Of a DNA stretch of 38,659 bases, positions 1 through 11,291 are shown in pieces. Source of the DNA: Candidatus Woesearchaeota archaeon (GTDB taxonomy: Archaea; Nanobdellota; Nanobdellia; Pacearchaeales; GW2011-AR1). A model generated the notes under the pieces. It did not search any database, had not been told where the DNA came from, and was given only the letters and a program-made list of their open reading frames with translations. The stretch is from positions 1 to 38,659 of the forward strand of contig CAZHCL010000008.1 of NCBI GenBank assembly GCA_964530955.1, read 5' to 3'. Within the stretch, counting starts at the first letter, position 1, and each line of letters begins with the position of its first letter. Both the position numbers and the translations under genes were made by a program.

Positions 1-165
1 AATTCTTTACAAAGCTATGAAATCATCAGGTGGTTTTTCTGTTTCAAGTAATCTCATTTCCGTAGTATCCTATTCACTTGCCTCTAAGGTCTTTATTTAA
101 TAAAAAGACCCTAGACCAGTTTCTCGCAAGCGAATCTTCTCTAAGGTCATTCAATAATAGGTCTT

Positions 166-393
166 TTGGCAATGAAAAACAATATGGATGAAAAGCAACT
201 AGTTTACAGGATAATAAGAAGTGTAGGAACTGACACGTTGGAAGGAGAAAAGATAATGAGAAGAATACATGAAAGAAATGATTCAAAAAGATTAGCTCAG
301 GAAAGAGAAGAATTGTTAGAAAGATATCATAATTCAAATCCCGAGTCGGGCTTGGACCATACTTATTATTTCAGGGCAGATTACAAAGAGTAG
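166..393 (+). CDS. small hypothetical protein (start could be at 172 or 184)
   Basis: 75-aa ORF filling the gap before tRNA-Arg; no recognised motif; the TAG stop overlaps the tRNA 3' end. Confidence 0.5.
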   Translation: MAMKNNMDEKQLVYRIIRSVGTDTLEGEKIMRRIHERNDSKRLAQEREELLERYHNSNPESGLDHTYYFRADYKE

Positions 394-462
394 GCCTAAG
401 AGGAATTGAACCCCTGTTTCAACGTCCGAAGCGTCGCGTTCTATCCACTGAACTATAGGCCC
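391..462 (-). tRNA. tRNA-Arg (anticodon TCG), no intron, CCA not encoded
   Basis: Reverse complement folds as GGGCCTA TA GTTC AGTGGATA GAAC G CGACG CT-TCG-GA CGTTG AAAC AGGGG TTCAATT CCTCT TAGGCCT A. Confidence 0.95.
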
Positions 463-485
463 ACAATAAGGATTATATACTCGGC

Positions 486-493
486 TTTTTAAT
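486..493 (-). promoter_or_regulatory. TATA box of tRNA-Arg
   Basis: ATTAAAAA on the minus strand with 23 nt between the box and tRNA G1. Confidence 0.6.
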
Positions 494-526
494 CTTAATT
501 AATGAAAAGAGAGCTCTACAATAAAA

Positions 527-1645
527 ATGAATCTTAAATTGTCAGCGACTTCAACGATAATCGGAACTGTAATAGGGGCTGGTTTTCTCGCCATACCTTT
601 TGTTGTGATGGAGTCAGGTTTTCCTATAGGATTAGTGCATTTTGTAATTTTAGGGATTATTGTAATGCTGACCATGCTTTACATGGGGGAAGTTGCCCTT
701 CGAACAAAAGAAGACCATCAGCTTAGCGGATACGCAGGAAAATATCTTGGTAAATGGGGTAAAAGGCTCATGTTTATTGCATTCGCCTTCGGTCTTTATG
801 CTGCGATTATAGCTTATTTAATAGCCGAAGGTCAGTCTCTGAGCTATCTTTTCTTTGGCTCTGTCAATCACGAATTAATTTTCAGCCTTTTATTCTGGCT
901 GATTTTATCAGCAATGAGTTACTTCGGTTTAAAATCACTAAAGAAGTTTGAATCAATTGCAGTAGGATTGGTTTTGCTGTTAGTTGTTGGAATTTCAATT
1001 CTCAGCTGGCATAAAATAAATTTTGCTAATCTTTCTTCTTTTAATATGAATAACGCATTCGTTCCTTTTGGGGTTGTTTTATTTTCATTCCTTGCTTTTT
1101 CAGTAATCCCAGAAATAAAGAAGATGCTTGGCAGTGAGCAGAAGTTAATGAAATCATCAATTATCAAAGCATATATAATTGCATTTTTAGTTTACATAAT
1201 ATTCACTGCAGTAGTAATAGGTGTAAAAGGTAACTCCACTCCTCAGTTAGCTACCCTTGCATTAGGTCCCATTTTTATTATTCTTGGAATAATAACCATG
1301 TTCACTTCTTATCTCGTCCTTTCTGTTGCCTTGGCTGACTCTTATTCTTCAGATTATAAAAAGTCTAAAAAATCTTCTTGGTTACTGACTATTCTCATTC
1401 CATTGGCAATTTATCTTATACTAAAATTAACAAAAAGTGCAAATTTCACAGCAGTCTTAGGAATAGGGGGGGTAATTTCGGGTGGACTGACAGGAATTCT
1501 TATCCTCCTAATGGCTAAGAAAGCAAAAATCAATGGAGACAGAAAGCCAGAATACGAAATGCCTTACTCTTCCATATTAACCTGGTTAATTATAGCAGTT
1601 TATATCATCGGAGCAATAATAGAAGTTATTAATATAATCAGATAA
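527..1645 (+). CDS. aromatic amino acid permease family transporter (HAAAP/ArAAP-like, APC superfamily)
   Basis: About 11 hydrophobic helices; N-terminal IGTVIGAGFLAIPF motif; FGVVLFSFLAFSVIPE motif. Confidence 0.85.
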   Translation: MNLKLSATSTIIGTVIGAGFLAIPFVVMESGFPIGLVHFVILGIIVMLTMLYMGEVALRTKEDHQLSGYAGKYLGKWGKRLMFIAFAFGLYAAIIAYLIAEGQSLSYLFFGSVNHELIFSLLFWLILSAMSYFGLKSLKKFESIAVGLVLLLVVGISILSWHKINFANLSSFNMNNAFVPFGVVLFSFLAFSVIPEIKKMLGSEQKLMKSSIIKAYIIAFLVYIIFTAVVIGVKGNSTPQLATLALGPIFIILGIITMFTSYLVLSVALADSYSSDYKKSKKSSWLLTILIPLAIYLILKLTKSANFTAVLGIGGVISGGLTGILILLMAKKAKINGDRKPEYEMPYSSILTWLIIAVYIIGAIIEVINIIR

Positions 1646-5310: not shown

Positions 5311-5421
5311 AGACAGCATCGGAGCTTCGCCTCTTGTCGGAGACTAACACAACCGACGTAATCAGCTTGACTTCTGAGTTCGGAATGGGATCAGGTATGG
5401 CCTGACTACTGTGGCCGTCTC
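5311..5421 (-). rRNA. rrf: 5S rRNA, unlinked from 16S/23S
   Basis: GAGACGGC/GCTGTCT terminal helix, CCTGATCCCATTCCGAACTCAGAAGTCAAGC loop B/C signature; ends approximate. Confidence 0.93.
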
Positions 5422-5442
5422 ATTGTTCCTGAGAAATAAGGC

Positions 5443-8716: not shown

Positions 8717-8724
8717 CTTAAAAA
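8717..8724 (+). promoter_or_regulatory. putative TATA box of repeat copy R1
   Basis: CTTAAAAA preceded by GTAAGG; 23 nt to G8748. Confidence 0.55.
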
Positions 8725-8745
8725 TAGATTATTCTACTCATTTCA

Positions 8746-8795
8746 AAGCTCGCGTAGTTTAGTGGCAATAAACGATAATAAATGTACGAATATAA
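8746..8795 (+). repeat. R1: 50-bp direct repeat resembling a tRNA 5' fragment; putative ncRNA
   Basis: AAGCTCGCGTAGTTTAGTGGCAATAAACGATAATAAATGTACGAATATAA, identical to 9576-9625; 24/28 identity to tRNA-Asp nt 1-28. Confidence 0.9.
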
Positions 8796-8806
8796 CAAAC
8801 AGCTAC

Positions 8807-8815
8807 TTTTTATTT
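8807..8815 (+). terminator. putative oligo-T terminator after R1
   Basis: TTTTTATTT, the same 9-mer that follows tRNA-Asp; overlaps the stop codon of the opposite-strand gene. Confidence 0.4.
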
Positions 8816-9397
8816 GAATTTTCTAGATTTAGAAATGCACATTTTGCAAGCTTTGAATTTCTTACTCGTAAAGAATTTCTTGCTATTGTTGCTTACCTTG
8901 TACTTTCTCTTTATTAATTTGCCAAATCTACATGATCTTAAATGATAAGTCTTTGTTTCTGTAGAGCCTAAAAACTTGTATTTTGGAATGTTGAGTTTCT
9001 TTCTTTTTCTTTCAATATAAACGGGCTTTATAACTTCTCTATATTCGGGAACTGGTACATTTCTGACAATTTCTCTTATAACTGGCACTTCTTTAACTAC
9101 TGGTCTATCAAGATATATTTCTCTATAAACTGGGTTTTCAACAGTCTCAATTATCTTCTGTGTTACTTCTCTTAAAGACTTAGGTTCAAGTAAGAAGAAT
9201 AAAAATATCGCATAACATACTAGCGTAATTAAAGCAACCAAGATCTTCTGTATAAGGTCAAAAGAAAATAGAAAAAGAATTAGTATAAATCCCGATATTA
9301 ATAAACAACTCATTAATACCGCAATTGCTAGATTTTCTCCTTTGAATGATTTATACTCTCTTATTTCAGGCTCTAGATATCTTATGTTGTTATTCAT
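8810..9397 (-). CDS. membrane-anchored protein with V/I-E/K-V-P-V repeats and a C-terminal Ada-like Zn-binding domain
   Basis: Two TM helices; PVVKEVPVIREIVRNVPVPEYREVIKPVYI; FLGS..TKTYH..SC...I...........F.ACKMC. Confidence 0.7.
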   Translation of the reverse strand: MNNNIRYLEPEIREYKSFKGENLAIAVLMSCLLISGFILILFLFSFDLIQKILVALITLVCYAIFLFFLLEPKSLREVTQKIIETVENPVYREIYLDRPVVKEVPVIREIVRNVPVPEYREVIKPVYIERKRKKLNIPKYKFLGSTETKTYHLRSCRFGKLIKRKYKVSNNSKKFFTSKKFKACKMCISKSRKFK

Positions 9398-9546
9398 AAA
9401 ATACCTATATAAATGGTATACTTAAACCCTTGTATTTGTTACCACTAATAAGTTATTACTGCATATAGCTGGATTAGGATATGAAGCGCTAAATCCCACT
9501 GACTTTTCTAATAAGATTATATGAATAATAATCCGATAAATAAAGA

Positions 9547-9554
9547 TTTAAAAA
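9547..9554 (+). promoter_or_regulatory. putative TATA box of repeat copy R2
   Basis: TTTAAAAA (same box as the rpoH, rps12 and rpl35ae promoters); 23 nt to G9578. Confidence 0.6.
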
Positions 9555-9575
9555 CCACAAAAGTAACTTAATTTG

Positions 9576-9625
9576 AAGCTCGCGTAGTTTAGTGGCAATA
9601 AACGATAATAAATGTACGAATATAA
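9576..9625 (+). repeat. R2: second copy of the 50-bp tRNA-5'-like repeat; putative ncRNA
   Basis: Identical to 8746-8795. Confidence 0.9.
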
Positions 9626-9634
9626 ATAAATTGA

Positions 9635-10471
9635 TTAATCCGTCTCAACTATACTCTCTTTATCATTTACATCAACTATAGCATTTCTCACGATAGGGAA
9701 AGGACTCTTAAACAATTGGTCTGACTGGTATTTTACCCTAACAGCAACTCTAAATCTCTTACTTTCTCCTTTGTTTGTGACAAATCCTAAAAACTCATCT
9801 CTATCGTTTCTGTTCTCAGATAAACTAAACCTCTTTTTGATATATTCAGTAAAGTCTATATTTTTTTGTTCATTTAAAGATAAATAATGTATTTCTTTTT
9901 CCTGTACATTCAATGTGCTATCTTTTAATCTTTTTAAGAATTTTTTACCTCTTTCTCTAAGTGGCAAGAGTTCTTTTAGTTCCATTTCGACTTCCAACCG
10001 CTTTATAGGATAACTTCCCACATTTTTTACATATATACTAAGGTCTTGATTAATTCTCACATCTAATACCGAAAGTCTAGAAAGCAAAGTAGATTTTTGA
10101 TAGATGAAAACACTCCAGATAGTAGCACTAGCTAAAACAATAGTAAAGATAGCAACAATAGATTGGTCTGTTAGTTGCAAAGGAATAAATGGGGTGGGTA
10201 TCTTAAATAACCAAAGAAAAACTATTCCTATGAGAGTTAAAATAACTACCATATATAAGATTGATAAAATAATTTTAGACATCTCATCCTCAAAACCAAT
10301 ACCTAAAATAAAAATAGATAAATAAAATAGAAAAAAGATAGTATTTAAATTAATAGATATATGAAATGCTGATATAATTATCATTAGCAAAAATATTATA
10401 GCAATAGATAACATTCTCCTTGTTTTTTTATTCAAACCAAACATTTTTTTTCTTTCTGATTCCATAATCAT
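9635..10471 (-). CDS. hypothetical membrane protein (about 4 TM plus a beta-rich soluble domain)
   Basis: Start reassigned to ATG 10471 (GGGGT SD-like motif 9 nt upstream) because the ORF track's extension runs through tRNA-Asp; YVKNVGSYP Ig-like strand pattern. Confidence 0.7.
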   Translation of the reverse strand: MIMESERKKMFGLNKKTRRMLSIAIIFLLMIIISAFHISINLNTIFFLFYLSIFILGIGFEDEMSKIILSILYMVVILTLIGIVFLWLFKIPTPFIPLQLTDQSIVAIFTIVLASATIWSVFIYQKSTLLSRLSVLDVRINQDLSIYVKNVGSYPIKRLEVEMELKELLPLRERGKKFLKRLKDSTLNVQEKEIHYLSLNEQKNIDFTEYIKKRFSLSENRNDRDEFLGFVTNKGESKRFRVAVRVKYQSDQLFKSPFPIVRNAIVDVNDKESIVETD

Positions 10472-10485
10472 AATCTTATAACCCC

Positions 10486-10494
10486 AAATAAAAA
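10486..10494 (-). terminator. oligo-T terminator after tRNA-Asp
   Basis: TTTTTATTT 1 nt after the discriminator. Confidence 0.55.
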
Positions 10495-10495
10495 G

Positions 10496-10566
10496 CGCCC
10501 GCTGCGGGAATCGGACCCGCGACTCAACCGCGACAGGGTCGTGTTTTACCACTAAACTAAGCGAGC
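10496..10566 (-). tRNA. tRNA-Asp (anticodon GTC), no intron, CCA not encoded
   Basis: GCTCGCT TA GTTT AGTGGTA AAAC A CGACC CT-GTC-GC GGTTG AGTC GCGGG TCCGATT CCCGC AGCGGGC G; G73 discriminator. Confidence 0.95.
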
Positions 10567-10591
10567 TACTGAAATTATGTTATTTTTATGG

Positions 10592-10599
10592 TTTTTAAA
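10592..10599 (-). promoter_or_regulatory. TATA box of tRNA-Asp
   Basis: TTTAAAAA, 25 nt upstream of tRNA G1. Confidence 0.65.
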
Positions 10600-10684
10600 T
10601 CTTGTTTTATTTATAGTTAGCTACATCCTACATAAGAAATTCTAGTAAATATCTATTTGAAATCACAACAAATAATATAAGCCA

Positions 10685-11291
10685 TTGAAATTAACAGATT
10701 TTATGAGAATTGAAGATATTTTGATAAGAAAAGAAGAAGTACCAATAATTCTAGACACAAACTTTGAGATACCGATACATCCTTTATTGCTGCAGCCTGG
10801 AAGCAGAATAAATCCTAAATTGGCAAACAGCTTGTTTGAGAAAGCTGCTCAGGAATGGTACGAAGACCTTCTTGCTTATTCAAGTGCTATGCCAGAATCA
10901 CAAAATAAAGAAAAAGAATGGATTAAATCTATTTTTCTAAAATCAAACGGTAAAATAGAGAATGTTCATAGGGTTCAAAGAGTAAAAGAAGTAGGTTGGG
11001 AGGATACTGTTGGGACTGATGAGAATGGTTTTGCTTCACATCTATCAATAAGTAGAAATGGGGGATCTTAACTGTGAATGTTATTTAGTTCCTAACTCAA
11101 GATTAATAAGATTTTCAGCAGATAAGATAAAGGAATTCACTATGAATCCAGAAAAATATGCAGAAATAAAAAGAGGAGCCAAAGCATATATTTATGCTAA
11201 ACACAATATAGATCATTTGCCTGGAGCTATTTTTCTGAGAAATTGGTCCCTATTATATGTCAATGAGGCGCTTAAGCAGGTGCTAAGATAG
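10685..11291 (+). pseudogene. hypothetical gene of about 200 aa, probably split by a frameshift at a G5 run (ORFs 10685-11071 and 11058-11291)
   Basis: Removing one G from 11060-11064 fuses the ORFs (…SISRNGDLNCECYLVP…); the alternative is two overlapping small genes. Confidence 0.5.

Follow-up and report, generated by a model that had tools for sequence, protein, structure and literature searches.

Promoter-bearing 5' fragments of tRNA-Asp fused to a conserved non-tRNA arm in a Woesearchaeota-type archaeon, probable junctions of recombination at the D-arm

The 38,659 nucleotides (nt) analysed here (hereafter the window) are contig CAZHCL010000008.1, numbered C8, of a Candidatus Woesearchaeota archaeon assembly (GCA_964530955.1, hereafter G000; 761 kb in 26 contigs, 35% GC, 82.7% complete), and they contain two short units in which a tRNA-type promoter and the beginning of tRNA-Asp are joined to an arm that is not tRNA. 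The core of the units is a 50-nt exact direct repeat (8746-8795 and 9576-9625), with similarity reaching 60 nt at 93%; identity of a 50-mer cannot arise by chance in 38 kb. As a preliminary description of the window had noted, the sequence from G8748 or G9578 onwards is that of an acceptor 5' strand and an intact D-arm followed by a 21-nt non-tRNA trailer. Two linker bases precede the D-stem, which has 4 bp and encloses a 9-nt loop, and the trailer is AT-rich. The D-arm of the units is a 5-bp dyad (GTTTA / TAAAC) flanking a 7-bp spacer. The tRNA-Asp-derived part of copy 1 (8748-8768, plus strand), which corresponds to tRNA positions 1-21, comprises the acceptor 5' strand, the 5' strand of the D-stem and the D-loop; its non-tRNA arm (8769-8795, plus strand) consists of TAAAC, which completes the dyad, a G and the trailer. 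In copy 2 the same two parts are located at 9578-9598 and 9599-9625 of the plus strand, and the arm is identical to that of copy 1.

A TATA-like box on the plus strand precedes each copy (CTTAAAAA at 8717-8724 and TTTAAAAA at 9547-9554), and both boxes end 23 nt before the initial G. This matches the geometry of the tRNA genes of G000, as originally proposed: when all the tRNA genes called by ARAGORN in this genome were surveyed, 23 nt was the most frequent spacing between box and gene (10 of the 20 genes with a recognisable box, to which the counts are limited), and the spacing was 21-25 nt in 19 of these 20 genes. The terminator ascribed to copy 1 corresponds to a T-rich, terminator-like stretch (8806-8816, plus strand) identical to an 11-mer on the 3' side of tRNA-Asp. 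Judged from these sequence features, both units appear to be promoter-equipped tRNA 5' fragments. The misassembly of one copy, which had been envisaged, was excluded because three independent assemblies (contigs L266, L267 and L268, from two ENA samples and one JGI sample, 99.5-100% identical) each cover both copies in the same layout.

The space between the two copies is occupied by an open reading frame (ORF) for a 195-amino-acid (aa) membrane ORFan (8810-9397, minus strand), which is convergent with copy 1 and has its stop codon 15 nt from the repeat. A second membrane ORFan, of 278 aa (9635-10471, minus strand; stop codon 10 nt from the repeat), lies between copy 2 and an intact tRNA-Asp(GTC) gene (10495-10566, minus strand; 61.2 bits), which is found about 1 kb from the fragments, is inverted relative to them and is their apparent parent. 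The TATA-like box of this tRNA gene (10592-10599, minus strand) is placed 25 nt before +1, in surroundings paralogous to the promoter of copy 2. The two ORFan genes coincide with an island (8900-10700) with a GC content of 0.27-0.30 vs 0.33-0.38 in the flanks.

A similar array was found in G007, a Candidatus Woesearchaeota metagenome-assembled genome of a sister species in the same genus. Its contig C9 carries three units, at 95 (unit A), 1024 (unit A2) and 4522 (unit B); an intact tRNA-Asp gene (5355-5425) lies downstream of all three and is read in the same direction. Unit B equals the tRNA-Asp of G007 from -31, at the TATA box, to +21 and is divergent beyond; this unit and the tRNA gene are in direct orientation, with 833 nt and one ORF between them. 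Unit A resembles copy 1 of G000 over 103 nt (76.7%), including the promoter region and a T-run near +62, and unit A2 has the same break position in the tRNA, followed by a different continuation without the arm. The segment formed by unit B, the 211-aa ORF and tRNA-Asp was also present in an independent assembly (L270), in a contig long enough to span it as judged from gene coordinates. Several contigs with this 211-aa ORF were shorter than 2 kb, which may point to assembly breaks near the 53-nt repeat.

The flanks of the two copies in G000 had been taken as largely unrelated, which has to be corrected, as the promoters of both copies are paralogues of the tRNA-Asp promoter. Copy 2 with its promoter is 83% identical over 70 nt to the promoter and first ~21 nt of tRNA-Asp, including a 15-nt identical stretch around the TATA box; its promoter is of the tRNA-Asp type. 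The homology stops in or just after the D-loop, where the two copies continue with TAAAC, G and the trailer and the tRNA continues with its anticodon arm. All four trailer-bearing units of the two genomes, as well as unit A2, depart from tRNA homology at this same point. The ends of the acceptor strand differ among units: CG in both G000 copies vs CT in the tRNA-Asp of G000, AA in unit B, the same as in the tRNA-Asp of G007, and CT in units A and A2. The head of each unit follows the resident tRNA-Asp, matching or nearly matching it. The trailer, in contrast, is conserved across species: that of copies 1 and 2 is identical to the trailer of unit B in 19 of 21 positions (90%) and to that of unit A in 15 of 21 (71%). 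As a baseline, 25 orthologous tRNA promoter spacers (23 nt) of G000 and G007 showed a mean identity of 47% and a maximum of 78%. From these comparisons, each unit is a chimera with a host-specific left part and a cross-species-conserved right arm of ~27 nt, the seam being at the D-arm.

The DNA between the units is not shared. When 9 kb of G000 and 8 kb of G007 were compared by tblastx, only the units and tRNA-Asp were common to both, and the cargo was unrelated: the 195-aa and 278-aa membrane ORFans in G000, and a 190-aa secreted ORFan, an AsnC/Lrp-type regulator, four ORFans and the 211-aa ORFan in G007. Apart from the AsnC/Lrp-type regulator, the cargo ORFs of both species matched no Pfam or PHROG family. 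The 278-aa ORFan had no homologue in 16 genus members, and exact look-ups of this ORF and of a 689-aa helicase in public contigs returned no record. In three of the four trailer-bearing units, 10-15 nt separate the stop codon of a convergent gene from the end of the conserved block. The 195-aa ORFan has at its C-terminus an H-x3-C ... C-x2-C motif resembling a small zinc-binding module, and a homologue of this protein, with 55% identity over the C-terminal 60 aa, is present on contig C17 of another genome (G010). A JGI contig (L132) extends contig C9 of G007 leftwards and contains, just upstream of unit A, a 259-aa ORF (165-944, minus strand) with a bacterial-type Sigma70 region 4 (PF04545, E = 1e-13); such an ORF is odd for an archaeon and may be a mobile-element or transferred gene.

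Four scans addressed the distribution of the units. A 27-mer, with up to 3 mismatches allowed, was searched in the 16 genus members and in 44 further relatives; the other scans covered 300 genomes of the order, one genome for each of the 80 genera of the family (by means of a sequence model built on the 56-nt unit) and, with the D-arm pattern, all the species of the GTDB collection. Full units were confined to G000 and G007 across all the genome collections scanned; the D-arm pattern gave 46 loci in GTDB, and the only genuine one was that of G007. Among the matches listed in a scan of metagenomes with the arm pattern, one was a real contig, L132, from the same organism as G007, and the others were AT-rich chance matches. 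The tRNA-Asp genes of G015, where it is the same as in G007, and of G010 had no unit in the 12 kb examined, and their flanks were non-syntenic. Organisms of the G000 type and of the G007 type share one sample (ERZ27245396; contigs L266 and L271), and exchange of the element between these two co-occurring species is plausible.

We consider that the units are probably attL-type junctions (or attP-like sites of the inserted DNA) which arose from recombination with a crossover in the D-arm of tRNA-Asp, with a probability of about 0.6. Some of their features are those expected of attachment (att) sites: in G007, unit B and tRNA-Asp are direct repeats that share a part of the tRNA gene, one of them being within the intact tRNA; the two units of G000 are direct repeats as well, with tRNA-Asp inverted; and the cargo between repeats is unrelated, consists mostly of ORFans and has a lower GC content. 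Two stem halves around a 7-bp spacer, as found in the D-arm of the units, are the usual layout of a tyrosine-recombinase core. According to this proposal, the incoming DNA would carry a promoter, a head and the arm, and the crossover would take place in the D-loop. The tRNA-Asp gene would stay intact and would now be driven by the incoming promoter; the previous promoter and head would be pushed outward and fused to the incoming arm. Serial events would stack an array of the form unit, cargo, unit, cargo, tRNA-Asp, and in G000 the last segment would additionally have been inverted, so that tRNA-Asp faces the units. Short RNAs made of head and arm are probably produced as a by-product, because the displaced promoters look intact. 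Recombination scars had already been mentioned in the preliminary description as inert remnants; a scar is the best-supported reading, but scars that are simply inert do not fit, because the non-tRNA arm is conserved across species.

Two systems described in other archaea support the comparison. For integrases of the pTN3 kind, attB is located in the 5' half of a tRNA gene, and the element then supplies the promoter (PMC8371274; PMC5495485). In these pTN3/TKV4-type elements of Thermococcales, as in our reading of the units, the shared site belongs to the 5' portion of a tRNA gene, the promoter of the reconstituted tRNA comes with the incoming DNA and a partial head remains at the other junction. 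In addition, tRNA sites in opposite orientation allow the pTN3 integrase to flip the DNA between them (Cossu et al. 2017, PMC5495485), and this inversion chemistry is the extra step required by the G000 layout. In contrast, the pTN3 site comprises positions 2-44 of tRNA-Leu and lies inside an SSV-type integrase gene that is split on integration, whereas our units share the segment from the promoter to position 21, break in the D-arm, delimit inserts of 0.8-3.5 kb and belong to a DPANN (Woesearchaeota-type) host; no integrase-like ORF or integrase remnant overlaps them. A very close precedent is the tRNA-Thr-F of Caldiarchaeum subterraneum (Sugahara et al. 2012, PMC3293823), a promoter-bearing 5' fragment (positions 1-27) that is separated by a recombinase element from the intact gene, 1.8 kb downstream. 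Here too, a 5' fragment with its upstream region, an insert and an intact tRNA of the same kind follow one another, and the break position is nearly equal (24-27). The Caldiarchaeum insert differs in that it encodes a recombinase, is present in six genome copies and left an intron in the tRNA, whereas the arrays described here comprise two or three units in series with a conserved non-tRNA arm, lack a recombinase and have a tRNA-Asp without intron.

Several observations weigh against recombination at the D-arm as the origin of the units. No recombinase was found in or next to the arrays, and matches to PF00589 were found only on contigs C2 and C3 of G000 and on contigs C35 and C2 of G007. The tRNA-Asp of G000 is inverted relative to its units, which needs an extra event. 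IMG/VR yielded no genuine match and no free attP form. An empty site with conserved flanks could not be defined, the neighbourhood of tRNA-Asp being non-syntenic in seven genus members. The inserts are tiny (0.83-3.5 kb) and have no recognisable plasmid or virus genes, and a homologue of the 195-aa ORFan (38% identity) is found in G007 (C9:11371-11880) with no unit beside it. Finally, copy 1 does not differ from copy 2, but both depart from the resident tRNA-Asp at two positions and by a 2-nt indel, which could also be due to gene conversion or to a shared element allele.

The PF00589 matches in G000 correspond to a XerA-like gene on C2 and to a 410-aa gene on C3. The latter, a tyrosine-recombinase-like gene (C3:65904-66395), is located directly downstream of tRNA-Ser(GCT) (C3:65308-65392), and the same pairing of tRNA-Ser(GCT) and recombinase occurs in G007 (C2:22537-22621 and C2:23354-23764). 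The 410-aa gene may belong to an integrated element or be a domesticated integrase, and its product is a candidate for an enzyme acting in trans.

An alternative that we regard as possible but unlikely is that the units are genes for a functional small RNA of ~50-70 nt derived from tRNA-Asp, acting as a decoy, as a guide or as a cis-antisense RNA to the convergent membrane-protein genes, and that they are kept in several copies by selection on this RNA. Such a function would be compatible with an origin by recombination. The promoter geometry, equal to that of real tRNA genes, is in agreement with it, as are the T-run that ends both copy 1 and unit A of G007 ~60 nt downstream, the conservation of the arm above the neutral baseline and the short distance from the block to the convergent stop codons. 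However, the predicted folds were no better than those of shuffled sequences (z-scores from +1.3 to -1.3), no Rfam family was matched even at E = 10, and no complementary target was found in the G000 genome. The head follows the resident tRNA-Asp and is not conserved as part of one RNA, unit A2 of G007 has no arm, and full units are present in just the two co-occurring species when the 16 genus members, the 80 genera of the family and the GTDB species set are considered.

A bolder form of the recombination proposal, which must be seen as distinctly unlikely, is that the inserts are a family of integrase-less mini-cassettes with the units as their recombination sites. In Woesearchaeota-type DPANN archaea they would be mobilised in trans and serially stacked at the tRNA-Asp D-arm, and every one of them would encode a tRNA-Asp-headed RNA of ~50-70 nt. 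Each cassette would be defined by a size of 0.8-3.5 kb, usually one ORFan gene for a membrane or secreted protein, and a tRNA promoter and head. Integrons are characterised by the IntI integrase and by attC sites that form imperfect hairpins. The arrays are like integron cassette arrays in their serial, mostly single-gene and unrelated inserts, in the conserved repeat that resembles a recombination site and in the fixed anchor. They are unlike them in having no integrase at the locus, a dyad of only 4-5 bp and no attC-like fold, and in that the repeat is a tRNA promoter with a head. If this proposal were true, the locus would be a platform for gene capture comparable with an integron, with a tRNA gene as its anchor.

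Likewise distinctly unlikely is a plain segmental duplication of the 5' region of tRNA-Asp, with homologous recombination and gene conversion, in which neither a site-specific recombinase nor mobile DNA took part and inert pseudogene pieces were the outcome. The missing recombinase, the 100% identity of copies 1 and 2, as expected after a recent conversion, and the residence of the 195-aa gene family in the same neighbourhood in G007 would all be accounted for in this way. It leaves unexplained, on the other hand, why all five units break at the same point, the D-arm dyad, why the arm is conserved across species (19/21 vs the 47% baseline) and why the cargo is completely unrelated.

The block could also be read on the minus strand, as a 3' untranslated region or terminator of the convergent genes, where the TATA boxes appear as T-runs; this is less favoured, because the clear paralogy with the promoter and head of tRNA-Asp favours an origin on the plus strand. 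As for a coding function, one frame is open through all four units, but it was rejected since most of the substitutions in it change the amino acid and it is closed early in two of the units; no coding pattern was observed in the short frames across the units.

The preliminary description had put forward the units as possible 5' pieces of a trans-spliced tRNA, whose 3' piece would bear a leader complementary to the 21-nt trailer in the style of Nanoarchaeum and Caldivirga; this is very improbable, because an intact tRNA-Asp lies nearby, all 20 amino acids are served and no credible 3' partner was found. In the split tRNAs of Nanoarchaeum equitans and Caldivirga maquilingensis, the 3' piece has a complementary GC-rich leader, the junction forms a bulge-helix-bulge and the intact gene is absent. 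Our units share with them a separately promoted 5' piece, with acceptor 5' strand and D-arm, followed by a non-tRNA trailer, but no partner was found for them, the trailer is AT-rich and intact tRNA-Asp stands alongside. It can be said for a split tRNA that the lineage tolerates odd intron positions, as shown by a D-loop intron in the tRNA-Asn of G000, and that the assemblies of G000 and G007 are only 83-84% complete. Nevertheless, the complement of the trailer was absent from the 761 kb of G000 at up to 4 mismatches, and when G007 and G010 were searched on both strands for a degenerate 24-nt pattern of the arm (up to 3 mismatches), a single weak match was obtained, on the reverse strand of G007 and with 3 mismatches (the three assemblies of these searches being 83-89% complete). 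A scan for a T-arm with a matching acceptor 3' strand yielded only known complete tRNAs, and all the Rfam tRNA matches above the gathering score were full length in both G000 and G007. Moreover, a single 3' piece cannot pair with acceptor strands that differ among units (CG, CT and AA). The lack of a matching 3' half, first reported for the window, holds in these scans for the 82.7%-complete assembly of G000, where no credible candidate was detected.

A missing isoacceptor, the other sign of a split tRNA that had been suggested, was not found at the level of amino acid families. ARAGORN listed 42 tRNAs in G000 and tRNA-Asn was not one of them; the argument from a missing tRNA-Asn was rejected, because the gene called "Gly(tcc)" with a 67-nt intron (C1:63834-63983) turned out to be tRNA-Asn(GTT), interrupted in the D-loop and at position 37/38 by introns of ~39 nt each (Rfam score, 19.5 bits). 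The true intron-containing tRNA-Gly(TCC) is located at C1:30835-30935. In the orthologue of G007 (C11:4988-5088, mis-called Ser by ARAGORN) the exons match those of the G000 gene and the 37/38 intron is the only one, so that the D-loop intron appears to be a recent gain or loss. The isoacceptors not seen in the incomplete G000 assembly were Pro GGG/CGG, Leu GAG/CAG and Arg CCG. Three contigs of G000 end in a partial tRNA (C12:29025-29048, Leu-like 3' part; C19:3-26, Ala(GGC)-like 3' part; C17:4-28, Cys-like 5' part), which could be genes cut by assembly breaks or further duplicated pieces with assembly collapse.

The analysis removes a tempting split-tRNA false positive in DPANN archaea and points to the route by which such look-alikes can originate: promoter-bearing heads are left behind when recombination takes place within the 5' half of a tRNA gene. 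In a 2021 review, the targeting of the tRNA 5' half was considered unique, among archaea, to the pTN3-like integrases of Thermococcales (PMC8371274). If the recombination proposal is true, this type of targeting would also occur in DPANN archaea, where the crossover would lie in the D-arm, and tRNA-Asp would be a small hot spot for the turnover of ORFan surface-protein genes. Because the same process has been proposed as the source of tRNA introns and split tRNAs (PMC3293823), the locus may be a natural snapshot of that route.

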